A stretch of 64,000 nt of DNA, taken from the NCBI GenBank assembly GCA_964555035.1, contig CAZKRK010000003.1, positions 1,133 through 65,132 on the forward strand. Direction: 5' to 3'. Shown piece after piece: positions 9,616-62,702 of the stretch (position 1 is its first letter; each line of letters opens with the position of its first letter). A model generated the notes under the pieces. That model was not told the DNA's origin. It did not search any database and was given only the letters and a program-made list of their open reading frames with translations. A program made the translations under genes and the position numbers. Origin of the DNA: an uncultured Victivallales bacterium (GTDB lineage: Bacteria; Verrucomicrobiota; Kiritimatiellia; UBA8416; CAYOBW01).

Positions 9616-9668
9616 CTCTGTTTCCTCTCCTTCGTATTCAACTAAGCGATGCTCAAGAAAGGCCCCCT

Positions 9669-9795
9669 GGAGGGCGAGCGTCCCGCGAGCCGCGAGCGAG
9701 ACACGAGCAGGATTGTGACAGGATCTGCGAGAAGCGCCTAACTGTCTCGGACTCGTGCGTCCCTCGTGCTCGGCTCGCGAGGACGCTCGCCCTCC
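9669..9795. repeat. ~127-bp palindromic element, family 1 (arms GGAGGGCGAGCGTCC(C/T)CGCGAGCCG)
   Basis: ggagggcgagcgtcccgcgagccg...cggctcgcgaggacgctcgccctcc. The interior is about 80% identical to the reverse complement of the copy at 17395..17523. It sits in the gap between two same-strand genes. Confidence 0.8.
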
Positions 9796-9816
9796 ATCCC
9801 TTGTTTCAAAACGTGG

Positions 9817-12405: not shown

Positions 12406-12488
12406 GCTTCAATTTGCTTCCATCTACCGGGCGTATTCAGATTCGTGAAGCAGAATACGCACACGCCAAGGTAACGCGCTACCCCCTC

Positions 12489-17340: not shown

Positions 17341-17394
17341 AGATCTTCCGCTCCCTTCGTAGCGCTATGCAAGGGCTGTTCGAAGAAGTCTCCT

Positions 17395-17523
17395 GGAGGG
17401 CGAGCGTCCCCGCGAGCCGAGTGCGAGGGACACGCAAGGGCAGAGACAGGGAAGTGATACCCGTGTATTCTGTCACATTTCTGCTCATGTCTCGCTCGCG
17501 GCTCGCGAGGACGCTCGCCCTCC
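17395..17523. repeat. ~129-bp palindromic element, family 1, opposite orientation to copy 9669..9795
   Basis: ggagggcgagcgtccccgcgagccg...cggctcgcgaggacgctcgccctcc. It sits in the gap between the GH43-like and ThuA genes. Confidence 0.8.
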
Positions 17524-17569
17524 ATTACCTGTTTGAGGAAGGTCCAACGCCCCCCCCTTCGGGCTACCT

Positions 17570-18727: not shown

Positions 18728-18994
18728 GGGGTGTATGCGGGAATTGCGCGGGAAAGGGAGAAACAGCCTCCCGCCCTTCGTCTTTACCATTGTCTGTACC
18801 TTAATCTGTTCGGAAAGAGACACGGGTAAAGACAATCGTAGAGACAGCGGTGTTGTGTTGTGTGTGGGGGTACGCATCACGCGCCTTGTTTGCGGCGCCA
18901 TTCGGGCTTGCCCCCGTCACTCTCTGATGCTTGGGCAGAAATGTGTGTACGACGTGAGGCATACATGCTGGCTTCATCTTGGATCAGATAGGAG

Positions 18995-19282
18995 ATGGCC
19001 ATGGCAACCGTGACTTTGAAGAGACAGACGCGATTGAATGTCCGTGCCACTCAGGAGCAAAAGGACTTGATTGCCCGTGCGGCACGCATGACCCACTCCA
19101 TCATCAGCGAGTTCGTTCTCGGCCGGGCATACCGCGACGCGCAGGAGATCCTGGCGGAGCAGAACGACTTCAGGTTGCCGGATCGCCAGTGGCGGGCGTT
19201 CAACCAAGCCCTGGATGCTCCCCCTAAGCCCATTGCCGCCCTGCGCCGACTACTTACCGAAGACGGGGTCTTTGATGGCTGA
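18995..19282 (+). CDS. tacA: TacA-type (DUF1778, RHH) antitoxin
   Basis: LNVRATQEQKDLIARAARMTHSIISEFVLGRAYRDAQEIL...DRQWRAFNQALDAPPKP is the DUF1778 pattern. It overlaps the downstream GNAT-toxin start by 8 nt. Confidence 0.8.
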   Translation: MAMATVTLKRQTRLNVRATQEQKDLIARAARMTHSIISEFVLGRAYRDAQEILAEQNDFRLPDRQWRAFNQALDAPPKPIAALRRLLTEDGVFDG

Positions 19283-19874: not shown

Positions 19875-20551
19875 CTATCGCAGGGGCTTCATCTCAGCAC
19901 CTTCGAAGAGCAGGACGCTCTCGCGTTTCGCCCTGCGAATCAGCGGCTGCGTGAAGCCCGACTTCGAGAAGAGCGCATAGTGAAGACGGTATGCGCTCAG
20001 AACGCGCTGGCCCTTGCCTTTCTCGATGAGCTCGTCCAGGACGGACTCGCTGACGCGCCTGGATGTCCATTTGCATTCTCCGAGCAGGGCAACGCGCTCC
20101 GAGTGGTTGACCGCGGCAACGTCAATCTCCGCGCTTCGCCGCCATGATCGGCCCACAGAATCTGAAGAACACTGGCAATGCCCGGATACGATTCCAGCAG
20201 GTAGGGGAACTCGTCGATGACTAACCGGACTCGCCTATGACAACTCAGCTCAAAGACATGCCGCAAGGCAGCTTCCCAGTCAGCAAACCGTGCACCGGCA
20301 GGCATCTCACCCAGGTCAGACTCGGCCAGGATGCGAGAGAACTTCTCCAGCAACACGCCGGGGGAGCTCTTGTGCGCCACCCAGTATGCCGACGGACACC
20401 CGGAATGCCTCGAAAGCCAGTGGGTGATGAGTGCCGTCTTTCCGATGCGCCGTCGCCCATAGATCACAACGAACTGTGCCTCGGGCTTCCGGTCGAGTTC
20501 GTCCAGCGCCGACAGTTCCTTCTTTCGGTTTACGAATCTCATTCTATTCAC
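19875..20551 (-). pseudogene. Broken AAA ATPase (Arch_ATPase-like) / DUF234 gene: N-terminal and C-terminal parts lie in different frames, middle missing
   Basis: 19997..20551: RFVNRKKELSALDEL...FVVIYGRRRIGKTALI (Walker A)...LVIDEFPYL (Walker B). 19875..20156, another frame: IDVAAVNHSERVALLGECKWTSRRVSESVLDELIEKG (DUF234-like). Total span is ~225 codons against ~450 expected. Confidence 0.6.
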
Positions 20552-20657
20552 TCCAGCAGTAACTTACCCGATATGTGGTAAATGTAACATCCTGGAGTGC
20601 TGTCGTCAACCCCCGGCCCCCGACCTCACCGGCGGAGCAGTCACCCAAATTGACAGC

Positions 20658-26940: not shown

Positions 26941-27126
26941 CATCCCTTCAACCAGCTCAATCCAGAACGGATCTTCCACATCCATAGCCACGCCCAGATC
27001 ATTCCTCTTCCCGCCGATCTCGCGCATATTCGCTGGGACACCGTTGTCCTTTTCTGCTATGTTGACGACTCAATACACGCCCATCTCCGTGCTTGCAGGA
27101 GATCGCGGTAACTCGTGGAGGTCCCA

Positions 27127-30100
27127 ATGAGATGCTCATTCCCCTCTCGACTTTGCTCGGCGCTGTTGACAGCCGCCGTCATACTGCCGTCGCTCTTGGC
27201 GCTGCCCACCGTCGGCGCTCCTGCCAAGAACGCTGAGCCTCCCCTCAACGCAGACCTGCCGCCTACGGTCATCCGGTTCGAGTGGCTGCGACACGAGCAT
27301 CAGAAGCCAAACGAGAAATCACCCCGCGCCAGGACCAGCCAGACCAATCCGTTCCGAAACAACTTCGAATCGTTGCGCCTGGCGATAGAAGACCTGACAG
27401 ACACGTTCGCCGGCAAATACCCGAACGGAAAGAAGTACCTCGCCCGGCTGGACAGAATAGAGCATGCGGTGAAAGAGACGGAGGCGCCGCTCAAACCGCT
27501 GGCCGACGAGTTTGACAGGCTATTCAAAGAGGCGTTGCTGGCCAACCCGCTGATCGACTTCGACAAGCTCCTCTTCGTGGACTCACATCACCCGATGACG
27601 CCGCGCAACTGGCTCAGTCTGGACAGCATTGGCGGCACGACACGTGAGGGGGGTGTTGCCTTGAAGGTACTCTCGCCGGTCTCGCCGGACGGGGAAGTGA
27701 CGACGGTCTTCGTGCCGCCGGAAAGACGCAACCTGATCGCGATCGACTTGCACTGGGACGCGAAGAAACTGCTCTACACGGCAACGGGTCTTACCGGACG
27801 CGGAATGCAGCTTTTCGAAGTGGACCTGCCGCCGAAAGTGGACCCTGACGCCGGCGGACCGATCGTCCGCGAAATCGAGACCATTACGTACCAGGACGTG
27901 AGCAACTACGACGCCTGCTACTGTCCGGATGAGTCGATCGTATTCGTCAGTACGGCAACGATGAACGGCGTGCCTTGCATTCGCGGCGGTTCCCCGATCG
28001 GCAACCTCTACCGGAGGAAGCCGGACGGCACGATCGAACGGCTGACGAACGACCAGGACCACGACTGGCATCCGACGATGCTGCCCAACGGTCGCGTGAT
28101 GTACCTCCGCTGGGACTACACCGACACGCCTCACGCCTTCAACCGGGTGATGTTCTCGATGAACCCGGACGGCACGGGACAGGCGGCGATGTACGGCAGC
28201 AACTCGTACTGGCCCAACTGCATGTTCTACCCGAAACCCGTTCCCGGCAGCCCGACGAAGTTCGTCGCGTCAATCGTCGGCCATCACTCCGGAACGGTCG
28301 GCGGCATGTTCCTGTTCGACACGGCCAAAGGCCGTTTCGAAGCGGACGGCGTGGTGCAGCAGGTCCCCGGCTACGGGAAGGACGTCTTCCCGCGCATCGC
28401 CGACGGCCTGGGCTACCGTGACCCGAAGGTCACGTCGACTCACCCTCTTTCCGAGAAGTACTTCCTTGCCGCCTGCTGGCCCGGCAACGGCTGGCATGGG
28501 AAGAAGCAGGGCATTTTTCTGATGGACGTATTCGACAACGGGCTCGAACTCTGCAGCATCGAGGGGCGCAGCCTGCTGGAGCCCACACCGTGGAAGACGC
28601 GCAAGCGCCCGCCGGTCATCCCCGACAAGACCGATCGGACGGCAACCACCGGCACGGTGACGCTCAACAACGTGTATTACGGCGAAGGCACGAAGGGCGT
28701 ACCCGGGGGAACCATCAAGAGTCTGCGGGTCTACTCCTACAACTACGCCATGCGCCGGATGGGGGGACAGTCCGACCGCGTGGGCATGGACGGGCCCTGG
28801 GATGTTCGCGTGATTCTCGGCACGGTTCCCGTCGAGGCTGACGGCAGCGCCAGCTTCACGGTTCCGGCCATGACACCCATCGCCGTTCAGCCACTCGACG
28901 CGGAAGGCAAGGCGGTCCAGTTGATGCGAAGCTGGTTCACCTGCCGTCCGGGCGAGGTGCTTTCGTGCGTGGGCTGTCACGAGAACGCGAACGCAACGCC
29001 GGAACTGCAGGCGGCCAAGGCGGCCCTGCGCAAACCGTCGGCGATCGCCCCCTGGTACGGACCGGCGCGCGGGTTCAGTTTCAATCGTGAGGTGCAGCCG
29101 GTGCTCGACGCGTACTGTATCGGTTGCCACCACGGCGAGACCGATCGCACGTGCGCGGATGGGCACAAGATCGCCGACCTGACCCTGAAACCTGACATGG
29201 TCGTGTACGGGCGGGGCGCCTACCGGAAGATGGAGCAGCGCAGGATCCACCTGGACAAGAAGAACAAGACGCAGACACCGAAGGTGGTTGAGAAGAGTCT
29301 CCTGGAACAGATCGGCGAACCTGTTCTGTATAGCGACGTGTTCGCGGAGTCAAAGGGCAAGACGTACGGTGGCATGCATTTCCCCCCTGCTTACCTCCAC
29401 CTTTTCCGCTTCGCCAGAAGCGCTACACTGGAAAGTGACCTGCACCTGCTGACACCGTACGACTACCACGCCGACCAGACCAAACTCGTGCAGATGCTCA
29501 AGAAGGGACACCACGGCGTTCGACTGGACCGGGAAGCCTGGGACAGGATCATTACCTGGATTGACCTGAACACGCCGGCACACGGAAGCTGGCAGGAGAT
29601 CACGAATCCCCAGTTCCCGCGGGACTATGGAAAGAAGCGGGCCGAACTGATGGCGAAGTACGGGGGCATCGGCTTTGATCCGGAAACCGCCGTGGACCTG
29701 GCGAATGCCGGCGCCACGATCCCGAAGATCGACGCGATCATGCCCGGCAAAGTCTCCCGCCCCGCCGCCATCCGTGACAAGTATCCGGCCGGGGCGGACG
29801 AGAAGTCCCTCGTTGAAGCGAAGGATCCCGAGTCGGGCAAACTACGGGAGATGACGGTTGATCTCTCGAACGAGAAAGCGGTTCTGGAGGAGAAGTACGC
29901 GAAGATAAAGGACCCACGCAAGCGGCCCAGGGTAACGCCTGAGACGCTCAAGATGGCGTTCGCGCGCATTCCGGCCGGATCGTACGTAACCGGCAACGCA
30001 GACGGCAGCGAAGATGAGATGCACGAGCAGAGAGTCACAGTAGACGAGCCATTCTGGATCGCCACGCGGGAGACGGCGAATGAGTTGTTCAACCTGTTTG

Positions 30101-30699
30101 ACCCGACGCACGACAGTCGTCTGGACAGCAACGAACGACTGCATTTCGGGGACGGGATTGTACGAGGATTCCCCCTCAACCAACCTCTGCAACCTGTGGT
30201 CCGCGTCACGCAGCGGCAAGCCCTGGCCTTTTGCGACTGGCTCTCAGAGAAGACCGGCAAGACGTGTACGCTCCCGACGGAAGAACAGTGGGAGTGGGCG
30301 GCCCTGTTTGGAGGCTGCGACGAGAACGGCTACGCTGACACGGATTTCAGCAAGGTCGCCAACCTGGCGGACAAGTCGTACCTACTCAAGCATGCCAGCG
30401 GCGAGATGCCGATGTGGCGTCCCTGCATGCTTGGCTCAGATGACGGCACAAGAGTATCGGCCAAAGTTGGAACCTATGCGGCAAACGAGGTGGGGGTTCA
30501 TGATCTGATCGGCAACGTGGCGGAGTGGACGGTGACGCCCTGGCATCCGCCCAGGGGAATCGGCGGCCTGCCCCGCGTAGTCGCGAAAGGCGGCGCCTGG
30601 CGCGACCGCCCCAAGACAGCAACACCGTTTTCGAAGATGCCGGCGCGCCCGGAGCTGAAGTTCGTGGACGTCGGATTCCGGGTGATTATCGAGGATTGA
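27127..30699 (+). CDS. Secreted 1190-aa fusion: beta-propeller-like N-terminal region, two CxxCH motifs, C-terminal FGE-sulfatase (SUMF1-type) domain
   Basis: ATG 27127 with GGAGG 5 nt upstream. Signal peptide MRCSFPSRLCSALLTAAVILPSLLALPTVGA. CVGCH at 28966-28980 and CIGCH at 29116-29130. The C-terminus FARIPAGSYVTGNADG...HEQRVTVDEPFWIATRETANELF...GVHDLIGNVAEW...GGAWRD is SUMF1/FGE-like. Confidence 0.7.
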   Translation: MRCSFPSRLCSALLTAAVILPSLLALPTVGAPAKNAEPPLNADLPPTVIRFEWLRHEHQKPNEKSPRARTSQTNPFRNNFESLRLAIEDLTDTFAGKYPNGKKYLARLDRIEHAVKETEAPLKPLADEFDRLFKEALLANPLIDFDKLLFVDSHHPMTPRNWLSLDSIGGTTREGGVALKVLSPVSPDGEVTTVFVPPERRNLIAIDLHWDAKKLLYTATGLTGRGMQLFEVDLPPKVDPDAGGPIVREIETITYQDVSNYDACYCPDESIVFVSTATMNGVPCIRGGSPIGNLYRRKPDGTIERLTNDQDHDWHPTMLPNGRVMYLRWDYTDTPHAFNRVMFSMNPDGTGQAAMYGSNSYWPNCMFYPKPVPGSPTKFVASIVGHHSGTVGGMFLFDTAKGRFEADGVVQQVPGYGKDVFPRIADGLGYRDPKVTSTHPLSEKYFLAACWPGNGWHGKKQGIFLMDVFDNGLELCSIEGRSLLEPTPWKTRKRPPVIPDKTDRTATTGTVTLNNVYYGEGTKGVPGGTIKSLRVYSYNYAMRRMGGQSDRVGMDGPWDVRVILGTVPVEADGSASFTVPAMTPIAVQPLDAEGKAVQLMRSWFTCRPGEVLSCVGCHENANATPELQAAKAALRKPSAIAPWYGPARGFSFNREVQPVLDAYCIGCHHGETDRTCADGHKIADLTLKPDMVVYGRGAYRKMEQRRIHLDKKNKTQTPKVVEKSLLEQIGEPVLYSDVFAESKGKTYGGMHFPPAYLHLFRFARSATLESDLHLLTPYDYHADQTKLVQMLKKGHHGVRLDREAWDRIITWIDLNTPAHGSWQEITNPQFPRDYGKKRAELMAKYGGIGFDPETAVDLANAGATIPKIDAIMPGKVSRPAAIRDKYPAGADEKSLVEAKDPESGKLREMTVDLSNEKAVLEEKYAKIKDPRKRPRVTPETLKMAFARIPAGSYVTGNADGSEDEMHEQRVTVDEPFWIATRETANELFNLFDPTHDSRLDSNERLHFGDGIVRGFPLNQPLQPVVRVTQRQALAFCDWLSEKTGKTCTLPTEEQWEWAALFGGCDENGYADTDFSKVANLADKSYLLKHASGEMPMWRPCMLGSDDGTRVSAKVGTYAANEVGVHDLIGNVAEWTVTPWHPPRGIGGLPRVVAKGGAWRDRPKTATPFSKMPARPELKFVDVGFRVIIED

Positions 30700-30763
30700 A
30701 TGTCAGTGTGTGGGTATGTGAGTGTGTGAGGACAGAAGCAGCGAGGAAAGAAGGAGGAACAGA

Positions 30764-32161
30764 ATGAAGTGCAGGTTTGGATGGATGACGGTTGTAGTGG
30801 CAATGGCGGCGGTTCTGGCGGCATCGGCGGCGGACAAACCGGCTGGTGCGATTGACTTGTTTGACGGCAAAAGCCTCGCGGGGTGGGAGCACTACCTCGT
30901 TAAACCGGACGTCAAAATGGCCGATGTGTGGAGCGTCCGGGACGGGCTGCTCATCTGCAAAGGCAAGCCGATGGGGTACCTTGCCACGAAGAAGGAGTAC
31001 ACCAATTACAAGCTCGTCGTGGAGTGGCGGTGGGCACCCGGCAAGAAGGCCGGTAACAGCGGCGTGTTGATGCGGATTACGGGCGAGCCGAAAGCGTTGC
31101 CGAAGTGCGCCGAGGCACAGCTCAAGAGCGGTAGCGCCGGGGACATCTACGGCTTCCACGGTTTCAAGGTCAAGGGTGACGCCGCCAGGCTGAAATCCGC
31201 CCACGGCGAGATGATCGGGCAACTCTCGGGCGTATCGAAGATCAAGGGCAACGAGAAGGAACCGGGCGAATGGAACCGATACGACATCACGCTCAACGGC
31301 GGGGATCTGACGCTCATCATCAACGGCGAAAAGGTCAACGAGGCGACCGGCTTGGACATCGTGGCCGGGAAGATCGGCTTTCAGTCGGAAGGCGGCGAGA
31401 TTCACTTTCGCACGATCCGGTTGATTCCCCTGGAAGACGCAGTCACATCGCGGGATGACGGAAAGACGCGCGTGCTCTTCGTTTACGGCGGGGCCCATCA
31501 CTCCCCGATAACCCCCTACATCAGAATGCTCGATTCCATGGAAGGGATTGAGTGGACACCGGCCCTGATGCCGCAATCGGCCGGAATGCTCAAACCGGGA
31601 CTGGAGAACGAGTACGACGCGCTGCTCATGGTTCAGATGATGGGGGAACGCTGGGGACAGCCCGAGGCCACCCCGGAGCAGAGAAAGGCATTTGACGCAC
31701 TGCTCAAGAAGGGTATCGGAGTCGTGGCGCTGCACCAGGCCATTGCGACCGAACCGGGATGGGTGGAGTCTCCCATGATCGTGGGCGGCGTCTGGCGTAA
31801 CGAGGAGTATGAGGTCGGCGGAAAGTCCTACCCCAAGTCGGGATGTCTGCACGATACCGACATGAACATCAAGGCCTGCGACCCGAATCATCCCATCGTC
31901 AAGGGGGTGCCGGAATTCGTCATCAACGATGAACTCTATCTCGATATCTACAAGGCCGAGGACAACGTACCGATACTCGTGACCGATCACCCCCAGGCCA
32001 AGGGACGCAAGGAAATCGCGTGGACCCGTACCTACGGGGCGAGCAAAGTTTGCTACTTCCAGCTCGGGCACATCCCCGCGAAGACCTGGGCCCGCCCCGA
32101 CTGCCGCCGCATCGTTCGCCAGGGAATCCTCTGGGCAGCAGGTGACGTGGCGGCAGAGTGA
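30764..32161 (+). CDS. Secreted DUF1080 (3-keto-disaccharide-hydrolase-like) - ThuA fusion protein
   Basis: AAGGAGGAAC RBS before ATG 30764. Signal peptide MKCRFGWMTVVVAMAAVLAASA. DLFDGKSLAGWEH...NSGVLMRI...GEWNRYDI...IGFQSEGGEIHFRTIRLIPL is DUF1080. RVLFVYGGAHH...VALHQA...AWTRTYGASKVCYFQLGH is ThuA-like. Confidence 0.8.
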   Translation: MKCRFGWMTVVVAMAAVLAASAADKPAGAIDLFDGKSLAGWEHYLVKPDVKMADVWSVRDGLLICKGKPMGYLATKKEYTNYKLVVEWRWAPGKKAGNSGVLMRITGEPKALPKCAEAQLKSGSAGDIYGFHGFKVKGDAARLKSAHGEMIGQLSGVSKIKGNEKEPGEWNRYDITLNGGDLTLIINGEKVNEATGLDIVAGKIGFQSEGGEIHFRTIRLIPLEDAVTSRDDGKTRVLFVYGGAHHSPITPYIRMLDSMEGIEWTPALMPQSAGMLKPGLENEYDALLMVQMMGERWGQPEATPEQRKAFDALLKKGIGVVALHQAIATEPGWVESPMIVGGVWRNEEYEVGGKSYPKSGCLHDTDMNIKACDPNHPIVKGVPEFVINDELYLDIYKAEDNVPILVTDHPQAKGRKEIAWTRTYGASKVCYFQLGHIPAKTWARPDCRRIVRQGILWAAGDVAAE

Positions 32162-42409: not shown

Positions 42410-42619
42410 ATGAAGACTTACACCGTCGTCGTTGAGCATTGCCCGGAAACGGATCTGTATGTCGGCTACGTTCCCGGTTTCCCGGGCGCCCATTCTCAGG
42501 GCACCACACTTGACGAACTGCAACACAACATGCAGGAAGTCGTGGCCATGCTTCTTGAAGACGGGGAGCCCAAACTGGAAGCGGAGTTCGTCGGAACTCA
42601 GAACCTGGTCATGGCCTGA
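42410..42619 (+). CDS. hicB: HicB-family antitoxin (UPF0150)
   Basis: YTVVVEHCPETDLYVGYVPGFPGAHSQGTTLDELQHNMQEVVAMLLED is the HicB N-terminal fold signature. It is followed 2 nt later by hicA. Confidence 0.8.
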   Translation: MKTYTVVVEHCPETDLYVGYVPGFPGAHSQGTTLDELQHNMQEVVAMLLEDGEPKLEAEFVGTQNLVMA

Positions 42620-42621
42620 GC

Positions 42622-42846
42622 ATGGGCAACGTTCCAGTACTTAAGCCCAAGGAAGTCGTCCGTATACTTGAGACTCTCGGCTTCCTGCTCGTACGCCAAC
42701 GCGGCTCCCACCGCCAGTACCGCCACAGTGACGGCCGCTGCACGACCGTTCCTTTCCATGCCGGCCGCGACATCGCCCCACCCCTGCTTCGTCAGATCGC
42801 AAAGGACGTCCACCTGAGCATCGACGAGTTCCTAACGCATCGGTGA
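42622..42846 (+). CDS. hicA: HicA-family mRNA interferase toxin
   Basis: LKPKEVVRILETLGFLLVRQRGSHRQYRH...TVPFHAGRDIAPPLLRQIAKD is the HicA/YcfA pattern including the GSH histidine. Confidence 0.85.
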   Translation: MGNVPVLKPKEVVRILETLGFLLVRQRGSHRQYRHSDGRCTTVPFHAGRDIAPPLLRQIAKDVHLSIDEFLTHR

Positions 42847-47161: not shown

Positions 47162-47662
47162 CTACTCCCCCATGACCAACACTTCGCAGACGCGTTTGCG
47201 TTCGCGGACCTGGTCCCAGTCGATGAAGTAGATAAACCCGAAATCGCCGAGCGAAAGCTCCCCCTTTTCGAGCACGATATTCTCGGAGCGGCCGAAGAAG
47301 CAGGAGCGCAGGTGGGCGTCGGTGTTCAGGCTGCCCTTGGGCTCCTCGTCGGGAAACGTGAGCGCAAACTCGATATGCTCGGGGCCCGGATGGTGATACT
47401 GCCCTTCGGTGCGGCAGGTGGGAATCAGCTTCTCCATGGTTTCCATCAAATCGACCTGCAGGTACTCACGGCCGAAGTAATTCAGGTCGTGCGAACACTC
47501 CTGGGTGATGACCGAGCAGGTGGTGTGGTGAGAGTAGACGGTCACCAGCCCGTTCTGGATGCCGGATTCCGCCACGATCTCCTTTACCTCGTCGGTGACG
47601 TTGTGGAAATCCGGCATGTGATCTTTCGACTGCACTTCGATTTTGCCAATGTGTACTGCCAT
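47162..47662 (-). CDS. yjbQ: YjbQ/UPF0047 family protein (second paralog)
   Basis: ATG 47662 (MAVHIGKIEVQSKDHMPDFHNVTDEVKEIVAESGIQNGLVTVYSHHTTCSVITQE...NTDAHLRSCFFG). GGAGAGAGGGAA RBS. Confidence 0.8.
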   Translation of the reverse strand: MAVHIGKIEVQSKDHMPDFHNVTDEVKEIVAESGIQNGLVTVYSHHTTCSVITQECSHDLNYFGREYLQVDLMETMEKLIPTCRTEGQYHHPGPEHIEFALTFPDEEPKGSLNTDAHLRSCFFGRSENIVLEKGELSLGDFGFIYFIDWDQVRERKRVCEVLVMGE

Positions 47663-47756
47663 GAGTGGTTCCCTCTCTCCTGTTTGTCTTCCTGTAGAAG
47701 AGTTGTCTCTCGAGCCCATACTCTACGACGAAAGCCAACCGGGATACTACCCCCTT

Positions 47757-54957: not shown

Positions 54958-55067
54958 TTGAGCTCGGCGTAAGTAACGGCGCATCCGCGATTTGTTGCAG
55001 GGCCACCGCAGGGCTTGCCCCGCTGGAGCCATGATTGATGGATGAGGAGAGATCAGAGGATCGATCG

Positions 55068-55143
55068 TCCACCGCTATCGTCGCCCGCTATCGTAGACCG
55101 AACCGAACGCCGGTGGACGATAGCGGACGACGATAGCGGTGGA
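55068..55143. repeat. Very stable hairpin (27-bp arms, 1 mismatch, 22-nt loop) 110 nt after the GH38 stop
   Basis: tccaccgctatcgtcgcccgctatcgt (55068-55094) / acgatagcggacgacgatagcggtgga (55117-55143). Flanking cgatcg/cgatgg extend the stem. Confidence 0.8.
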
Positions 55144-55190
55144 CGATGGTGAGGGGAGGCGAACCTGCATGTTGCCGTCGCACGTAATGA

Positions 55191-55225
55191 GCAGGTCGTC
55201 GGTTCGAGTCCGAGCGTTGGCTCCA
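55191..55225 (+). other. tRNA 3'-end-like remnant (T-arm + 3' acceptor strand + CCA), no complete cloverleaf
   Basis: gcaggtcgtcGGTTCGAGTCCgagcgttggctCCA. It has a GTTCGAGTC T-loop with a 4-bp stem (the fifth pair is G-G), then 7 nt, a discriminator and CCA. I could not find a matching 5' acceptor strand, D-arm or anticodon arm upstream. Confidence 0.35.
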
Positions 55226-55319
55226 CTTCCCGGAGGAGGGAAGCTGATGAAGGTAGTGAACGAGGTTGTCTGCCGTTGGTTGGTGCGCTACCATGGGTCG
55301 CAAATCCGGAGAATCAGTG

Positions 55320-56159
55320 ATGACCTATATTGAGCCGCACATCCACATGTATTCGCGCACGACGGACGACTACCAGGCGATGTTCGCCGCCGGGATTCGT
55401 GCCTGTGTGGAGCCTTCTTTCTGGCTGGGCAGCCACCGTCGCTATGCCGGTACCTTTTTCGACTACTTCCAGCTTGTCTGCGACTTTGAGGCGAAGCGCG
55501 CCGAGCGTTTCGGGGTCGATCACTTCGCCGCCGTGGCGTACAACCCGAAGGAGGCGGAGAATACGCCCCTGGTCGACGAGGTGTTGGCCGGAATAGGGGA
55601 ATACCTGGATCATCCCCGCTGTGTGGCCCTCGGCGAAATCGGTTTCAACAACATCAACGATGCAGAGGCGTACGCCTTTCGCCGTCAGCTTGAGATTGCG
55701 CGCGACCGGGATATGCTGGTCATTGTCCACATTTCCCATACCGACAAGGTGCGGTGCATCGAGCGCATGCTGCCGATCGTCGAGGAGGTGGGGCACGATC
55801 AGCGCAAGATCTACCTGGACCACAATACGGAGGACACGATTGGCGTTGCTCTCGCAAACTCCGACTGCTGGTGCGGTCTGACGGTCTATCCCATCTCGAA
55901 ACTCGACGCATCCAGGGTCAGTGCCATCGTCGCGGAACACGGGCACGAGCGCATCATTGTCAGCGGGTCGGCCGACTGGGGCATTTCCGACCCCTTGAGT
56001 CTGCCCAAAGTGATTGCGACGATGCGCGCGGACGGCCACGGCGAGGATGTGCTTGCCGCGCTTGCGTTCGGCCACGCGAACGCGTTCTACAGCCAATGCC
56101 CGAAGTGGCAGCCGCGGCTTGATCTGGAGCCATGGCCCATCGAGTTGCGCCAGCCGTGA
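55320..56159 (+). CDS. eboB: TatD-family metal-dependent hydrolase, EboB-like
   Basis: ATG 55320 (GGAGAA 7 nt upstream). MTYIEPHIHMYSRT (HxH). First gene of a TatD-UbiA-NPP-DHQS-TIM run matching the ebo cluster gene set. Confidence 0.75.
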   Translation: MTYIEPHIHMYSRTTDDYQAMFAAGIRACVEPSFWLGSHRRYAGTFFDYFQLVCDFEAKRAERFGVDHFAAVAYNPKEAENTPLVDEVLAGIGEYLDHPRCVALGEIGFNNINDAEAYAFRRQLEIARDRDMLVIVHISHTDKVRCIERMLPIVEEVGHDQRKIYLDHNTEDTIGVALANSDCWCGLTVYPISKLDASRVSAIVAEHGHERIIVSGSADWGISDPLSLPKVIATMRADGHGEDVLAALAFGHANAFYSQCPKWQPRLDLEPWPIELRQP

Positions 56160-57109
56160 CGGCGTCGGCGGATATGCCAACGGGGGGCGGCGGGGCGCCC
56201 GGCGCAAAGCGGAAACCGACCCCCGGCTGGTTGCAGCTTGTGCGCGCCCCGAATCTGCTGACGGTACCGGGCGATCCGATGGCCGGCGCCTGCATCGCGG
56301 GGGCGTTTGGCGCCGAGGGCTCTGTCCTGCAGCTCGCGGCCGCTGCCGTTTCATCGGTGGCTGTCTATGCCGCGGGATTGGTGGACAACGACCTGGTCGA
56401 CCTCGACGAAGACCGTGCTGCCCGTCCGGAGCGTCCGTTGCCGTCGGGCGCCGTGACGGAGAAGCAGGCGCGCAGGGGGCGGATCCTGCTCTTTGCCGTT
56501 CCTTTCCTTGTGGCGTGTGTTTTTCGTATGCCGCTTGCCTGGTTGACGGTTCAAGCTCTGCTGGTTGCGGCCTGTCTCTCCTACAATCGGCTCAAAGGGC
56601 GGTCGATTCTTGTGGGAGCCTTCCTTATGGGCGGATGCCGCGGGCTGAACATGCTCAGCGGTGTTGCGCTTGCGTGGGGGGTGCGGGGGGTGGCGTTGTG
56701 GCCGGCAACAGCGGTGGCGCCGTGGTGGGGGTACGTGATGGGGATCAGCCTCTTTGCGGCGCGGGAAACCGTGCGAGTGCCCGGGGGGTGGCGCTATCTG
56801 CTCGCAGTGGCCCCGCTCGCGCTGTTGGGGGCTTCCCTGTTGCCGGGCATTCCTGACCGGACGGGGTTGAGCATGTGCGGCGCCGGGATCTGCGGCGTGG
56901 CGCTGGTCGTTGACGTGATGGTTCGTCTGCGGGGCTGCAATTCGCTTGCCAAGGTCCCGCCCTCCGTGGGACGCTTGGTGCGCGCGCTCGTGCCGATGCA
57001 GCTGCTGCTTTGCCTGTCGATGCCGTTCTACGGAGATGCCTGCGGCATCCTGCTGTTGACGGGGTGGTTGCTTTCGGAATCACTGAGCAGGAGATTCTAC
57101 GCTTCATGA
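56132..57109 (+). CDS. eboC: UbiA-family prenyltransferase, EboC-like
   Basis: GLVDNDLVDLDEDRAARPERPLPSG contains the NDxxDxxxD Mg/diphosphate motif. Multiple TM segments. The start is either ATG 56132 (28-nt overlap with eboB) or ATG 56174. The stop overlaps the next ATG (ATGA). Confidence 0.8.
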   Translation: MAHRVAPAVTASADMPTGGGGAPGAKRKPTPGWLQLVRAPNLLTVPGDPMAGACIAGAFGAEGSVLQLAAAAVSSVAVYAAGLVDNDLVDLDEDRAARPERPLPSGAVTEKQARRGRILLFAVPFLVACVFRMPLAWLTVQALLVAACLSYNRLKGRSILVGAFLMGGCRGLNMLSGVALAWGVRGVALWPATAVAPWWGYVMGISLFAARETVRVPGGWRYLLAVAPLALLGASLLPGIPDRTGLSMCGAGICGVALVVDVMVRLRGCNSLAKVPPSVGRLVRALVPMQLLLCLSMPFYGDACGILLLTGWLLSESLSRRFYAS

Positions 57110-58425
57110 ACAAGTTGCTGGTGATCGGTGTGGCCGGGCTGGATTCGCGTACGGCACAGAAGCTCTCGCTTCCCGGCGGGGCCGGGTTCGCTCCTCTGCA
57201 GCCGGCGTTTCCAGCCGTCACCTGCACCGCGCAGGCGACCTTTCGCACGGCAGCGGCGCCGGCTCAACACGGGATGATTGCCAACGGTTTCTACGACCGC
57301 GCGCTGCGCAAGGTCATGTTCTGGGAGCAGTCGGCGGCGCTGGTCGAGGGCGAGCGCATCTGGGCCGCGTACCGTGCGGCGGGCCACACTGTCGGTGTGC
57401 TTTTCTGGCAGCAATCGCTTGGCGAGACGGTCGACTACGTGCTTTCGCCGGCGCCGATTCACAAGCACCATGGCGGGATGATCCTGGACTGCTACAGCCG
57501 GCCGCGCGAGATGTATGCCCGTTTGCGGGCCTCCCTGGGCGAATTCCCGCTGCGCCGTTACTGGGGGCCTTGTGCGTCGGCCGGGGTGGGGGACTGGATT
57601 GCGAGTGCCACGGCCGATGTCATGGCGCGGGAGGCGCCCGATCTGCTGTTGACCTATCTGCCGTCACTTGACTACGACTACCAGCGCTTCGGTCCCGAAT
57701 CGCCACAGGCAGCCCGGGCCGCGGAGTCGCTTGCCGGGCAACTTGAGACGCTGTTGTCGGCGTGTGAAGCGCAGGGGTACGACTGGCTAGTGTGGGGCGA
57801 CTACGGCATTGAACAGACGGTTGGCGGGGGTGTGCTCTTTCCCAACCGCGTGCTGCGCGAGGCCGGCGTGCTGACCTGCCGTGATGTCCGGGGGCGGGCG
57901 TATGCCGATTTCCACAGCTCGCGTGCCTTTGCCATGGTGGACCACGCGGTTGCCCATGTCTATGTGGCCGCGGACGGAGATGTCGCGGACGTGGCGGAGC
58001 TATTCGGGGCATGTCCCGGGGTTGAGCGCGTGTTGGCCGGCGATCGGCTCGACGCCGCACAGCTGCGGCATGGCCGTTGCGGGGATGTGGTGCTGATCGC
58101 CCGTCCGGGGCACTGGTTCGCCTACCCCTGGTGGGAGGGGCGGCGCCGGGCGCCCGATTTCGCGTCGCACGTGGATATCCACAACAAGCCGGGGTTCGAT
58201 CCCTGCGAGCTCTTCATGCAATGGTTGCCGCCCGGCGTGGGGCAGGATCCGACCCGGATCGGTGGGACCCACGGGCGTGCGGCCGGGACGGCGGCATGGG
58301 CCGGCTCGATTTCTCTGGACGGCGCCCCCTCCTCCCTGATTGAACTTTCGGCGGCTGTCCAGCGTTGGTTATGTAAGGAGTCAGAGTCCGCCGGTGACAG
58401 GACCGGTGTGGGTGACGTTCTATGA
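57106..58425 (+). CDS. eboF: Nucleotide pyrophosphatase/phosphodiesterase (alkaline-phosphatase superfamily), EboF-like
   Basis: ATG 57106. MNKLLVIGVAGLD...PAVTCTAQATFRTAAAPAQHGMIANGFYD is the NPP-type Thr-nucleophile region. ATGA overlaps at both ends. Confidence 0.75.
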   Translation: MNKLLVIGVAGLDSRTAQKLSLPGGAGFAPLQPAFPAVTCTAQATFRTAAAPAQHGMIANGFYDRALRKVMFWEQSAALVEGERIWAAYRAAGHTVGVLFWQQSLGETVDYVLSPAPIHKHHGGMILDCYSRPREMYARLRASLGEFPLRRYWGPCASAGVGDWIASATADVMAREAPDLLLTYLPSLDYDYQRFGPESPQAARAAESLAGQLETLLSACEAQGYDWLVWGDYGIEQTVGGGVLFPNRVLREAGVLTCRDVRGRAYADFHSSRAFAMVDHAVAHVYVAADGDVADVAELFGACPGVERVLAGDRLDAAQLRHGRCGDVVLIARPGHWFAYPWWEGRRRAPDFASHVDIHNKPGFDPCELFMQWLPPGVGQDPTRIGGTHGRAAGTAAWAGSISLDGAPSSLIELSAAVQRWLCKESESAGDRTGVGDVL

Positions 58426-59609
58426 CGTACGAGAGCATCAATCCGAGCTTTGCCGTGCCGTTCGAGTATCCGGTCGAATTCCTGCGCGATGCGTTTGCGC
58501 CGTCGAACGACCTGCTGGCGCGTACATTCGATCGCCACCAGGAGGGGCGGCGACACCGTGTTGTGGTTGTGCTCGACGCGGGGTTGAGCGACGCGCGCCC
58601 TGGTTTGGCCGCCGCGGTTGAGACCTATTTCCACGCCCATGCCGGTCAGATCGAGATGGCGGGGCCGATTGAGAGTTTTCCCGGGGGAGCTGCCGCCAAG
58701 GAAGGATACGCCAACCTCGAGCGCGTCATCTGGAACCTGGGCAACCTGCACATGGACCGTCAGAGCTTCGTGCTGGCAATTGGTGGCGGCAGTATGCTGG
58801 ACGCCGTCGGACTCGCGGTCTCGCTGGTGCACCGGGGCTTGCGGCTGATACGCATGCCATCAACCGTGCTGTCGCAGTGCGATGCGGGCATCGGCGTCAA
58901 GAACGGGGTGGACGAACACGGGCAGAAGAACTTCCTCGGCACGTTTGCGCCGCCGTTTGCGGTGATTAATGACTTTGCTCTGCTCTCTACCCTCGACGAT
59001 GCCCATTGGCGGGGGGGGATCGCCGAAGCCTTCAAGGTTTCCCTGATCCGGGATGCCGGTTTTTTTGCTCTCCTGCGTGAACACGCACCGGCGTTGCGCG
59101 GACGCGACGAGGAGCGTATGGCGGAGTTGGTGTACCGCTGCGCGTCCATCCACCTCAGGCACATTGCCACCAGCGGGGACCCTTTCGAGATGGGGTCGGC
59201 GCGTCCGCTCGATTTCGGTCACTGGGCGGCGCATCGCCTCGAGATCATGTCCCGTCATCGCCTCGGGCACGGGCAGGCCGTGGCCATCGGCATCGCGCTG
59301 GACTGCTGCTATGCGCGGCGGCGCGGGCTGTTGAGCGCGCAGGAGCGCGATGCCGTGCTGGATGCGCTCGAATCGGCCGGTCTTCCCACCTATGCGCATG
59401 AGCTGAGCGTACAGCGCCACGATGGCGAGCTGGAGTTGCTGCAGGGTCTGGCCGACTTCCGTGAGCACCTTGGCGGGCGGTTGACGATCACCTTGCCCGA
59501 AGGCATCGGGCAGGGGATTGAGGTGCATCACATGAACGAGGACTGGATCGTCGATTCCGTCCAAGCCCTGGCCGAGCGTGCGGCCGGCGGCGAATCGGGG
59601 AGCAACTGA
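58422..59609 (+). CDS. eboD: 3-dehydroquinate-synthase-like sugar phosphate cyclase, EboD-like
   Basis: VLAIGGGSMLDAVGLAV (GGGxxxD nucleotide loop), KNFLGTFAPPFAVINDFALLSTL and metal-ligand-type His blocks (HWAAH, RLGHGQAVAIG). Confidence 0.8.
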   Translation: MTYESINPSFAVPFEYPVEFLRDAFAPSNDLLARTFDRHQEGRRHRVVVVLDAGLSDARPGLAAAVETYFHAHAGQIEMAGPIESFPGGAAAKEGYANLERVIWNLGNLHMDRQSFVLAIGGGSMLDAVGLAVSLVHRGLRLIRMPSTVLSQCDAGIGVKNGVDEHGQKNFLGTFAPPFAVINDFALLSTLDDAHWRGGIAEAFKVSLIRDAGFFALLREHAPALRGRDEERMAELVYRCASIHLRHIATSGDPFEMGSARPLDFGHWAAHRLEIMSRHRLGHGQAVAIGIALDCCYARRRGLLSAQERDAVLDALESAGLPTYAHELSVQRHDGELELLQGLADFREHLGGRLTITLPEGIGQGIEVHHMNEDWIVDSVQALAERAAGGESGSN

Positions 59610-59611
59610 GT

Positions 59612-60823
59612 ATGCGCACGGGCAGTCAGGCGTTGTTCCCGAGTCGGCATTTGACCTACTGCATGAACGTTCATCCCGGTGAAAGCTGGGCCGACCAGGT
59701 GCGCGCGACGCGCGATGATGCGGTGCGCGTTCGCGAGCGCGTCGGCGAGGATGCGCCGTTCGGGCTGGGGCTGCGCATCGGCGCCGCTGCCGCGGCGGAA
59801 CTCTCGGCTAATCCTGCCTTTGTTGCCGAGTATCGGGCATTGCTGGCCGACCAGTCGATGTATGCCTTTACCGTAAATGCCTTTCCCTTCGGCACGTTCC
59901 ACGGTGTGCGTGTGAAGGAGGCGGTGTACGAGCCGGATTGGCGTGAACCCGAGCGTGCGGACTACACGTTGCAGGTCGCACGGATTCTTGCGGAGCTGCT
60001 TCCCGCGGGGGTGGTCGGCAGCATCTCTACCGCGCCCCTGACCTTCAAAGGGTGGCCCGGATGGGAGTCACGGTGCGATGGGGGAGTGCGAGGACTTGCC
60101 CGGGTCGCTCACGCACTGTGGCAGCTCGAAAGCGAATGCGGTCGGCGCATTGTGTTGGCCATGGAGCCGGAGCCGGGCTGCTATCCGGAGACGACACCGG
60201 AGCTGATTGACACGATGGTACGGCTCCGCACGGTGGGAGAACGTCATCTGCACGAGCGCTACGGCGTGCCGGCCGATGTCGCGGCGGAAGTGTTGCGCAC
60301 TTACGTGGGCTGTTGCTTTGACACGGCGCACCAGGCCGTGGAGTTTGAGTCGCTTCAGGCGAGTGTCCGTGACCTGCGGCAGGCCGGGGTGGCGATCGCC
60401 AAGGTGCAGGTCAGCGCGGCAATCGAAGCTGACCCTGCGGATGCGGAGGCGATCCGGGAACTGGCCGCGATGCAGGACGATGTCTATCTCCACCAAGTTG
60501 GGCTCCAGTACCCGGACGGATCGCTCCGCCGCTGGTACGATCTGCCCGCGTTCCTCGCGGAACTGCCGGAGCTCGAAGCCGGCATTGCGCGCATCCACTA
60601 CCATGTGCCGCTTTTCGTGCGCACGTTCGGGGCGTTGCGCAGCACAGCTCACCTGGTGCAGGAGGCGGCGGCCACGCTGCTCGATGCCAGTTGCCACATC
60701 GAGACGGAAACCTACACCTGGACGGTGTGGAAGCAGGCCACGGGGGAACAACTGCCGATTCATGCCGGCATCGCCCGTGAACTGGAGTGGCTGCACGCGC
60801 TGCGGGCCGAACCGGTGGATTGA
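59612..60823 (+). CDS. eboE: Xylose-isomerase-like TIM-barrel protein, EboE-like
   Basis: LTYCMNVHPGESW N-terminal block, AMEPEPGC, CFDTAHQAVEFE and IHYHVPLF resemble the EboE/AP-endonuclease-2 TIM-barrel family. Starts 2 nt after the eboD stop. Confidence 0.7.
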   Translation: MRTGSQALFPSRHLTYCMNVHPGESWADQVRATRDDAVRVRERVGEDAPFGLGLRIGAAAAAELSANPAFVAEYRALLADQSMYAFTVNAFPFGTFHGVRVKEAVYEPDWREPERADYTLQVARILAELLPAGVVGSISTAPLTFKGWPGWESRCDGGVRGLARVAHALWQLESECGRRIVLAMEPEPGCYPETTPELIDTMVRLRTVGERHLHERYGVPADVAAEVLRTYVGCCFDTAHQAVEFESLQASVRDLRQAGVAIAKVQVSAAIEADPADAEAIRELAAMQDDVYLHQVGLQYPDGSLRRWYDLPAFLAELPELEAGIARIHYHVPLFVRTFGALRSTAHLVQEAAATLLDASCHIETETYTWTVWKQATGEQLPIHAGIARELEWLHALRAEPVD

Positions 60824-60843: not shown

Positions 60844-61012
60844 ACTAGTGTGCTGTCACGCAAATACGTTCACGGAATTCCCGGACCGGCTCGCGAGGAC
60901 GCTCGCCCTCCATCCCGTTGTACTAACGTTGGTTATGACAATGGAGGGCGAGCGTCCTCGCGAGCCGAAAGTTGGTTTTCGATGAAACGTATTTATGGTA
61001 CACGACACTAGT
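60844..61012. repeat. Nested palindrome: outer ~27-bp arms enclosing a family-1 arm pair in head-to-head arrangement
   Basis: Inner: cggctcgcgaggacgctcgccctcc (60887-60911) / ggagggcgagcgtcctcgcgagccg (60943-60967). Outer: actagtgtgctgtcacgcaaatacgtt (60844-60870) versus aacgtatttatggtacacgacactagt (about 60986-61012), imperfect. Confidence 0.7.
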
Positions 61013-61076: not shown

Positions 61077-62702
61077 ATGAACGACACGAGTACTTCGACC
61101 ACCACGGAGACGATTCAGAGCGGATTGGGCGTTATCGGCATCGAGATGGGGTCGACCCGAATCAAGGCCGTTCTGATCGACACGGACAACACACCCGTCG
61201 CATCCGGCGGACACGGCTGGGAGAACACGCTGGAAGAGGGCATCTGGACCTATCCGTTGGACGAAGTGTGGACGGGGCTCCGCTCCAGTTTCGCCGATCT
61301 TCAGAAGAACGTGGCAGCGGAGTACGGCGTTGCTCTCAAGAGGGTGAAAGCGATCGGCTTGAGCGGAATGATGCACGGGTACATGGTCTTCGACGCCGAA
61401 GGCAATCAGCTCGTGCCCTTCCGAACCTGGCGGAACAACATCACCGGCCAGGCCTCTGAGGAACTCACCGGGTTGTTCGATTATCCGATCCCCCAGCGCT
61501 GGAGCATTGCCCACCTCTACCAGGCGATTCTGAACAAGGAAGAGCATGTGGTCCGCATCGCCCACATGACGACCCTGGCCGGTTACGTCCACTGGAAACT
61601 GACGGGACGGCAGGTGATGGGCATCGGGGAGGCATCCGGGATGTTTCCCATCGATATCGGGAAACAGGATTTCAACACCGCGCTGGCCAACGCGTTTGAT
61701 GCGCATGTCGGGGACGAGGGGGGTGCCTGGAAACTGACGGACATTCTCCCGCGGGTTCTGGGCGCCGGCGAGTCGGCCGGTGAACTGACGGAAGAAGGCG
61801 CGCGCCTGTTGGATCCCGCCGGCAACCTGGAGGCGGGTGTTCCGCTCTGCCCACCCGAAGGCGATGCCGGAACCGGCATGGTTGCCACCAACAGCGTCGA
61901 GGTGCGTACGGGCAATGTGTCGGCAGGCACGTCGGTCTTCGCGATGCTGGTGCTGGAGAAGGAGCTTTCGAAGGCTCATCACGAGATCGACCTGGTCACC
62001 ACGCCGGACGGCAAACTGGTGGGGATGGCGCATTCCAACAACTGTACCTCGGACTACAATGCCTGGATTGGCCTGTTCGGCGAGGCCGCGGGAGTGTTGG
62101 GTATGGAGGTGTCCGATCAGGACCTCTACGTCAAGCTTCTGAGTTTGGCCCTGGAGGGTGAGGCGGATTGTGGGGGTCTTCTGTCCTACGGATATGTCTC
62201 CGGCGAACACCTGACCGGCTTCAGCGAAGGCCGCCCGCTTTTTGCCCGTTCACCGAACTGCCGTTTCACCCTGGCCAATTTTATCCGTACCCTCCTGTTT
62301 ACGTCGCTCTGCGCCCTGCGGACCGGATTGAATATCCTGACGGAAGAAGAGGGGGTCGAGGTGGACGAGATCCACGGCCATGGCGGCTTCTTCAAAACGC
62401 CCGGAGTGGGACAGCGCATCATGGCCGCGGCCACGAAGACCCCGGTCTCTGTTCTGGAAACCGCCGGCGAAGGCGGCGCCTGGGGGATCGCACTGCTGGC
62501 GTCCTTCATGACCCGGGAGAACCGCGACGAGTCCCTGCCGGAATTCCTGAAGAAGATCTTTGCCGCAAGCATGGGCGAGGCGGTTCGGCCCGATCCCGTG
62601 GACGTAGCCGGCTTCGAACGCTTCCTCGAACGCTATCACGGGGGTCTTGCGATCGAACGAGCCGCTGTTGAGTGTTTGCCGGCGATCCTCGCCGGGCTGT
62701 GA
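61077..62702 (+). CDS. FGGY-family carbohydrate kinase (541 aa)
   Basis: [18 protein letters not shown]-terminal ATPase motif, [10 protein letters not shown], and C-terminal [29 protein letters not shown]-type signature. Confidence 0.8.

Follow-up and report, generated by a model that had tools for sequence, protein, structure and literature searches.

An eboA-less eboBCFDE operon of the PVC type in the glycan-utilization region of an uncultured Victivallales bacterium

Introduction

What is an ebo operon without eboA doing among the glycan-degrading genes of an uncultured Victivallales bacterium, and is it as odd as it looks? The question is raised by a 64-kb stretch of DNA, referred to here as the window (64,000 nt; GenBank assembly GCA_964555035.1, contig CAZKRK010000003.1, positions 1,133 to 65,132). 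An initial annotation read five consecutive open reading frames (ORFs) on the plus strand, at 55320–60823, as a translationally coupled eboB-eboC-eboF-eboD-eboE cluster. It considered the gene order, the lack of eboA and the lack of a scytonemin-type partner to be unusual, took a tRNA remnant upstream as a hint of horizontal acquisition, and described the product and its role as unknown. The five ORFs are found exactly where they were placed. The operon, however, is ordinary for its lineage, and the features claimed as oddities are lineage-typical and largely documented. It is likely that this is an intact operon of the type found in the Planctomycetota–Verrucomicrobiota–Chlamydiota (PVC) bacteria, that, by analogy with ebo genes studied elsewhere, it makes a meroterpenoid of the saccharoquinoline/thallusin type, and that the genes around it are bystanders.

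Five Ebo proteins in one operon

That these genes form an ebo cluster is borne out by EboD and EboE, which exceed their NCBIfam cut-offs, by the full-length alignment of EboC, and by synteny. EboE (403 aa, encoded at 59612–60823 on the plus strand, like the other four) is a xylose-isomerase-like TIM barrel without a Pfam match. It scores 369.8 bits with NF035939 (TIM_EboE; cut-off 250) over profile positions 1–378 of 379. At least 6982 homologs were found, of which the named ones are EboE of Planctomycetota, Phycisphaerae and Chthoniobacteraceae, and 57 columns are invariant over 31 aligned sequences. EboD (395 aa, 58422–59609) is a sugar phosphate cyclase resembling 3-dehydroquinate synthase (DHQS), with the Pfam domains DHQ_synthase and DHQS_C and the motif GGGSMLD. 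It scores 514 bits with NF004852 (cut-off 333), a model that synteny indicates to be the EboD family, and 328–502 bits by phmmer against the eboD genes of ebo operons; its best solved relative is 4p53 ("Cyclase", a sugar phosphate cyclase), which ranks above the DHQS entries.

For EboC (317 aa, 56156–57109), a UbiA-like membrane prenyltransferase with the motif NDLVDLDED (Pfam UbiA, 59.4–59.6 bits), the situation is somewhat more complicated. The top NCBIfam model is indeed NF035940 (EboC), but the score of 104.6 bits, over profile positions 1–180 of 292, falls below the equivalog cut-off of 250. Five other PVC-type EboC proteins score 106–144 bits with this model, while those of Bacteroidota and Nostoc score 393–411. 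Moreover, EboC aligns over its full length with 17 EboC proteins, keeping the blocks RxPNLxT, NDxxDxxxD..RPxRPxPSG and MGxCRGxN and the C-terminal FYAS. Because the other PVC-type proteins score alike and the conserved blocks are intact, the low score is a property of the clade and not a defect of the gene, and a decayed eboC can be ruled out.

EboB (279 aa, 55320–56159) is a TatD-like metal-dependent hydrolase (Pfam TatD_DNase, 41.7–41.8 bits) with an HxH motif close to its N-terminus (MTYIEPHIHMY). It is 88–92% identical to the 279-aa eboB products of two related loci (L089 and L087 in our numbering), its phmmer matches occupy the eboB position in at least 44 loci, and a sequence search of solved structures gave 3guw, an uncharacterized TatD-like protein, as the nearest. 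EboF (439 aa, 57106–58425) belongs to the nucleotide pyrophosphatase/phosphodiesterase family of the alkaline phosphatase superfamily. Its Pfam Phosphodiest match (147.5 bits) spans profile positions 33–342 of 342, it is also called as 439 aa on independent metagenome contigs, and its phmmer matches lie at the eboF position in at least 56 loci. Sequence searches of solved structures with EboE and EboF gave no match. Thus, the ORFs and the family models confirm all five assignments (TatD, UbiA, nucleotide pyrophosphatase/phosphodiesterase, DHQS-like and EboE-like) as well as the two motifs that had been read from the translations, and as judged by sequence comparison all five proteins are orthologous to Ebo proteins.

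The genes are tightly packed, with spacings of -4, -4, -4 and +2 nt at the B/C, C/F, F/D and D/E junctions. Both ATGA overlaps seen in the initial annotation are real (eboC/eboF at 57106–57109 and eboF/eboD at 58422–58425), as is the 2-nt gap between eboD and eboE (TGA-GT-ATG, 59607–59614). The 28-nt overlap proposed for eboB and eboC, which would follow from an ATG at 56132, is better replaced by a 4-nt GTGA overlap at 56156–56159, with eboC most likely starting at the GTG at 56156, since the CAGCC-GTGA of the window corresponds to CAGCC-ATGA in both close relatives. EboC is 317–318 aa long in these relatives, and a start at 56156 gives the matching length of 317 aa. (The other in-frame starts are the ATG at 56132 and another at 56174; for identical eboC sequences on different contigs, gene callers picked three different starts.) The start of eboB at 55320, with GGAGA 7 nt upstream of the ATG, yields a protein of the same length as its relatives. 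There is no room for an additional gene inside the operon. The five genes are probably transcribed as a single unit and translationally coupled; a promoter and terminator scan found sites no more numerous than in shuffled sequence.

A gene order typical of PVC bacteria

Is the order B-C-F-D-E unusual? A scan with an EboE profile, using one genome per species, gave at least 80 loci, onto which the five window proteins were mapped. None of the matches listed exceeded 47% EboE identity to the window; the closer relatives, L087/L088 and L089/L090, with EboE identities of 82% and 68%, were found by exact-protein look-up. Both have the same B-C-F-D-E operon, with 75–92% identity over the five proteins in L087/L088 and 54–88% in L089/L090 (Kiritimatiellia bacterium GCA_030747025.1), and their genes overlap or nearly abut (-10 to +6 nt). 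The same order recurs in a member of the Lentisphaerota (L013), in Victivallales (L085), in Kiritimatiellae (L054), in a Planctomycetaceae metagenome-assembled genome (MAG; L034), and in two unclassified MAGs (L029 and L037). The synteny comparison that the initial annotation had proposed therefore shows B-C-F-D-E to be the standard PVC-type layout rather than an exception.

Among the matches listed, Chthoniobacter, Phycisphaerae and others have partial forms (C-F-D-E, F-D-E, or B-F-D followed 1.7 kb later by eboE), the order A-B-C-D-E-F is found in Bacteroidota and several Nostoc-group cyanobacteria, and other Nostoc loci have eboD set apart on the opposite strand. These layouts correspond to differences in the proteins. 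In loci with eboF directly upstream of eboD (the F-D layout), window EboF scores 424–475 bits by phmmer, with a median of 452, as against a median of 260 in the remaining loci among the matches listed. EboB likewise has a median of 378 bits in F-D-layout loci versus 212 elsewhere, again among the matches listed; it scores 364–469 bits against eboB of nine PVC-lineage loci and 137–244 bits against eboB in A-B-C-D-E-F operons. On these scores there are two Ebo subfamilies, one with the F-D layout and one comprising the others. Both the gene order and the missing eboA are, in the sequences compared, common to the entire PVC-type subfamily.

PVC-type eboF/eboD loci without eboA also occur outside the PVC bacteria, in Desulfatiglandales (L068, C-B-F-D-E) and in Fibrobacteria (L030, B-F-D with eboE 1.7 kb on), which suggests lateral spread of the PVC-type operon.

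How does this operon compare with those already described? The canonical eboABCDEF cluster of Bacteroidota, cyanobacteria and eustigmatophyte plastids (Yurchenko 2016, PMC5133447; Klicki 2018, PMC6282210) has the same EboB, EboC, EboD, EboE and EboF families on one strand. The window differs from it in lacking eboA, in having eboF between eboC and eboD instead of last, in having EboB and EboF that belong to a distinct, higher-scoring subfamily and a divergent EboC that stays under its cut-off, and, compared with scytonemin makers, in having no scytonemin cluster. An eboA-less operon variant is known from Acidobacteria, Deinococcales and Herpetosiphon, but by its description it carries a short extra gene, eboG (Yurchenko 2016, PMC5133447), for which the window operon has no space. 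Pseudomonas fluorescens NZI7 needs a variant ebo cluster, EDB, to repel Caenorhabditis elegans. EDB shares ebo homologs with the window, but contains all six of them plus three extra genes, as against the five ebo genes here (PMC12904256). The closest match is the PVC-type eboBCFDE operon itself (as in L089, L054, L013, L085 and L034), which is identical in content, order, absence of eboA and overlapping or near-abutting junctions, with the closest members at 54–92% protein identity. The differences lie outside the operon: five PVC-type loci have an adjacent O-methyltransferase and the window has none, the flanks differ, and the tRNA-Thr fragment and hairpins described below were found in the window only.

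Absence of eboA

Two profiles were used to look for eboA. The first was built from 13 Bacteroidota and cyanobacterial loci, taking in each the gene that precedes eboB (one of these seeds scores 182 bits with NF035938, cut-off 50), and the second from all 34 EboA sequences found. Against the six-frame translation of the window, the first profile gave no match, with a best E-value of 1.2, and the second gave none at E<1, whether there or in the 34 PVC-type loci searched (569 kb). Neither side of the cluster, nor any other part of the window, therefore holds an eboA, as the initial annotation had noted for its flanks. A frameshifted eboA in the gap at 54958–55319 was ruled out by the six-frame searches, and the lack of any profile match across the ebo ORFs likewise rules out a fusion of EboA with one of the other Ebo proteins.

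The absence is nevertheless no peculiarity of this bacterium. In loci with other layouts, the first profile picked up 34 EboA genes (in Bacteroidota, Cyanobacteria, Rhodothermales, Burkholderiales and others, among the matches listed). EboA was present in 32 of the 38 loci with other layouts and in none of the 18 with the F-D layout, also among the matches listed. Absence of eboA has moreover been published for the Planctomycetota studied, and most genomes of the phylum yielded no identifiable eboA (bioRxiv 10.64898/2026.05.21.724671); in an earlier survey, the ebo genes of the Planctomycetes analyzed were not clustered (PMC5133447).

Likely product of the operon

What, then, does the operon make? 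By analogy with the ebo genes examined elsewhere, EboD would act on mannose-6-phosphate to give a cyclitol. This cyclitol and aspartate would be converted to a hydroxylated quinoline-2-carboxylate, for which EboB, EboE and EboF would be needed, and the membrane enzyme EboC would farnesylate the hydroxyquinoline-2-carboxylate and possibly cyclize its prenyl chain. The end product would be a meroterpenoid of the saccharoquinoline/thallusin type. The window operon is assigned to this pathway because of the literature on EboD, on EboC and on gene knock-outs in Stieleria. The product of EboD is known and its substrate is mannose-6-phosphate, according to a passage in PMC12904256 that cites Tanoeyadi 2024. 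EboC homologs farnesylate hydroxyquinoline carboxylates (PMC9235831; bioRxiv 10.64898/2026.05.21.724671). A 2026 preprint reports that aspartate enters the quinoline core, that ebo genes correlate with thallusin production in five phyla, and that deleting eboB, eboC, eboE or eboF abolishes thallusin in the planctomycete Stieleria maiorica, which ties these four genes to thallusin and saccharoquinoline biosynthesis (bioRxiv 10.64898/2026.05.21.724671). The statement that the ebo product and its role are unknown is thus outdated.

Like the window, S. maiorica Mal15 belongs to an eboA-less PVC lineage, and its four essential genes are all present here together with eboD, so that the window genes comprise the thallusin gene set as the preprint defines it. 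In the Planctomycetota studied, however, the ebo genes are scattered across the genome (bioRxiv 10.64898/2026.05.21.724671), whereas the window has them in one compact operon.

Several points weigh against this assignment, in addition to the low EboC score. The link to thallusin comes from one preprint that is not yet peer-reviewed, the likeness to the deleted Stieleria genes is one of shared gene set and not of direct protein comparison, and the 64 kb covered here are only part of a genome in which eboA, eboG or another partner may lie elsewhere. EboB, EboE and EboF each lack an assigned biochemical step, and no enzyme is known for the oxidative rearrangement that completes thallusin. Many Kiritimatiellia are anaerobes. 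For these last two reasons, the end product here may differ from thallusin.

An observation on the relatives touches the same question. An O-methyltransferase of the PF00891 type adjoins eboBCFDE in Lentisphaerota (L013:11281–12276), Planctomycetaceae (L034:4570–5577), Kiritimatiellae (L054:4644–5678, minus strand), Victivallales (L085:11002–12252) and Kiritimatiellia (L089:4700–5737 and L090:208–1191). Apart from ebo, this family (approximately 330–420 aa, measured as stop-to-stop ORFs, and thus not short as eboG is) is the only one found in at least five PVC-type loci. No adjacent O-methyltransferase was found in loci outside the B-C-F-D-E group, among the matches listed, nor in the window, and the main text of the 2026 preprint does not mention one (bioRxiv 10.64898/2026.05.21.724671). 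The enzyme may serve a tailoring step in this variant of the pathway, and its position hints at a modified product in the subfamily. One could go further and regard the eboA-independent eboBCFDE of PVC bacteria, often accompanied by a dedicated O-methyltransferase (though absent here), as a distinct pathway variant whose end product is something other than thallusin. One example would be a farnesyl-hydroxyquinoline that is O-methylated, or whose ring stays closed, and that forms without any oxygen-dependent cleavage. We regard this reading as unlikely.

Less probable again is a role in metabolite traffic, in which the operon product would be a prenylated carrier of the cyclitol type that moves metabolites over the inner membrane, instead of a secreted signal like thallusin. 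Such a role was proposed from Nostoc punctiforme, in which ebo mutants were tied to scytonemin monomers kept in the cytoplasm (Klicki 2018, PMC6282210). It is in keeping with the NCBIfam name for EboE ("metabolite traffic protein"), with EboC being an integral membrane enzyme, and with a host organism rich in exported glycan-degrading enzymes. On the other hand, thallusin has been found in ebo-carrying cyanobacteria including N. punctiforme, in a study which argues that the scytonemin effect may be indirect (bioRxiv 10.64898/2026.05.21.724671), and EboC accepts hydroxyquinolines (bioRxiv 10.64898/2026.05.21.724671; PMC9235831). Furthermore, PVC-type operons have no conserved export partner next to them. 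The window does lack a scytonemin-type partner, as the initial annotation had stated, but this is not unusual: to our knowledge, the absence of such a partner is the rule outside cyanobacteria.

Flanking DNA and origin of the operon

Could the operon have arrived recently, on a genomic island that inserted into a tRNA-Thr gene? The tRNA-end-like remnant directly upstream is real. It is an orphan 3' fragment of tRNA-Thr(CGU), 43 nt long (55183–55225, plus strand), reaching from the anticodon loop to the CCA end and located 95 nt upstream of eboB. Over these 43 nt it shares 93% identity with the corresponding end of genuine tRNA-Thr(CGU) genes, including a 25-mer, GGTTCGAGTCCGAGCGTTGGCTCCA, that matches two ARAGORN-confirmed tRNA-Thr(CGT) genes (L091 and L092) exactly; the 5' half is unrecognizable. 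If this fragment were the scar of an attachment site, its sharp boundary at the anticodon loop would be accounted for, and the different operon neighborhood in each relative and the slightly raised total GC of the ebo region (0.65–0.68, as against 0.60–0.63 in the flanks) would be in line with such an arrival.

The remaining evidence points the other way, and makes recent acquisition on an island quite improbable. The codon-usage distance of the ebo genes (0.090–0.134) lies inside the range of the other window genes (0.050–0.184), and GC content at third codon positions is equal; the surplus is at codon position 1 and thus reflects amino-acid composition. In the 64 kb, ARAGORN detected no intact tRNA gene, no integrase was found among the ORFs scanned, and there was no transposase, no second copy of the 43-nt fragment and no tRNA 5' half. 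Nor was the fragment found at the loci of the relatives. Finally, when islands integrate at tRNA genes, a 3' fragment left alone on the plus strand usually lies at the far end of an island to its left, away from the ebo side. The comparison of codon usage and GC between 55.3–60.8 kb and the flanks, which the initial annotation had suggested, thus reveals no foreign signature, and its suggestion that the remnant hints at horizontal acquisition is unsupported. The fragment was probably left behind by an old integration or rearrangement.

The remnant lies within a 362-nt gap upstream of eboB that is non-coding and strongly structured, as had been noted. The region 55040–55325 folds at -131 kcal/mol (z = -5.86), and contains an 84-nt hairpin (55064–55147) with 37-nt arms, 92% complementary, and a 10-nt loop. 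Situated between the GH38 (glycoside hydrolase family 38) gene and eboB, the hairpin consists of 13-nt units in tandem (CGGTGGACGATAG and its variants). It is a single copy in the window, was not found upstream of eboB in the relatives, and may be a terminator or stabilizer for GH38 or a regulatory site. Rfam at gathering thresholds gave no match in the window, and at permissive thresholds the upstream gap yielded nothing but spurious miRNA-hairpin matches, on the long inverted repeat.

Downstream of eboE, the palindrome that had been recognized ahead of an FGGY kinase gene is part of a set of nested inverted repeats (60844–61012), with a perfect inner pair of 27-nt arms (60887–60913 and 60941–60967). 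This inner pair is one copy of a dispersed element that resembles repetitive extragenic palindromic (REP) elements and has the arm TGGAGGGCGAGCGTCC(T/C)CGCGAGCC; the element forms long hairpins at 9668–9796, 17394–17524 and 60887–60967, at least two of these sites being intergenic. Short-read metagenome contigs of the same organism (L001–L006) terminate inside the 60887–60967 repeat. The repeats at 60844–61012 probably form the 3' boundary of the operon, as a terminator or mRNA stabilizer.

Neighboring genes

The glycan-degrader context claimed in the initial annotation is upheld by domain scans of the whole window, which is a glycan-utilization region typical for PVC bacteria: it encodes a sulfatase, an SSF transporter, GH43, GH95-like and GH38 enzymes, ThuA and GFO oxidoreductases, giant Laminin_G_3/LTD proteins and an FGE-sulfatase. 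The GH38 gene is directly upstream of the operon on the same strand and the FGGY kinase gene downstream; to the right of the window end, only an ABC transporter was seen. In the relatives, the flanking genes are different in every case. L087 is flanked by SASA and GH99-like genes (the latter weak, and downstream) and L089 by genes for an O-methyltransferase, a transketolase and 5-enolpyruvylshikimate-3-phosphate (EPSP) synthase, and the remaining PVC loci differ again, with only the O-methyltransferase recurring. Since the operon neighbors are not conserved, GH38 and the FGGY kinase are treated as bystanders and not as pathway partners, and GH95 is treated likewise.

It is tempting to connect these neighbors to the pathway, in that the GH38 alpha-mannosidase might free mannose for the kinase to convert to mannose-6-phosphate, the substrate of EboD; GH38 does adjoin the operon on the same strand, the kinase follows it, and the weak GH99-like gene downstream of the L087 operon could be seen in the same light. 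We consider this very improbable, given that the neighbors are unlike those in L087, L089 and the other PVC loci, that glycan-utilization genes fill the entire window anyway, and that the operon is separated from GH38 by 362 nt with a strong hairpin and from the kinase by the REP-like palindrome. The kinase itself is a widely and unusually well conserved xylulokinase-like protein, with 70–82% identity across many PVC lineages; its best named relatives, at 72–79%, are from Verrucomicrobia, Chthoniobacterales, Pontiellaceae and Kiritimatiellia. Judged by the names of protein relatives at 68–82% identity, the operon most likely lies on the chromosome of a marine member of the Kiritimatiellia or Verrucomicrobiota.

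An ordinary shikimate AroB together with a MenA/UbiA quinone prenyltransferase pathway, an alternative already raised in the initial annotation and prompted by the DHQS and UbiA Pfam domains common to those pathways, can be dismissed almost entirely on model scores: the aroB model TIGR01357 gives EboD only 187.5 bits (cut-off 305), ruling out a standard enzyme of the shikimate pathway, the quinone models, ubiA and menA among them, give the UbiA-like protein 20–54 bits, with the EboC model on top, EboE is above its equivalog cut-off, and the five-gene synteny is that common to ebo operons.

A few other features of the window deserve mention. There are two FGGY kinases (10936–12408, and 61077–62702 next to the operon) and duplicate genes for UPF0047 (YjbQ-like) proteins (9121–9816 and 47165–47722). 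Small toxin–antitoxin genes, for a TacA-like antitoxin and a HicA toxin (18992–19279 and 42559–42843), are scattered among the glycan-utilization genes, and an ATPase_2/AAA_16 fragment of 188 aa is encoded at 20000–20563. A protein of 1195 aa (27112–30696) has an odd architecture, with a hydrazine-synthase-alpha middle domain (PF18582) and a C-terminal FGE-sulfatase domain, and is adjoined by a fusion of 3-keto-disaccharide hydrolase and ThuA (30722–32158).

Significance

PVC lineages beyond the Planctomycetota studied so far keep the ebo pathway as one compact operon of 5.5 kb. This operon adds to the evidence for eboA being dispensable, and, being easily clonable, the 5.5-kb eboBCFDE is a convenient minimal cassette for rebuilding the pathway in another host. 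Should the 2026 assignment hold, its carrier, an uncultured marine PVC glycan degrader, would potentially produce signals of the thallusin type, which control the development of seaweeds. And if the PVC-type operon should turn out to be a distinct variant with a product of its own, the marine glycan-degrading Kiritimatiellia and Verrucomicrobiota that live on algal polysaccharides would be unrecognized producers of signals resembling algal morphogens.

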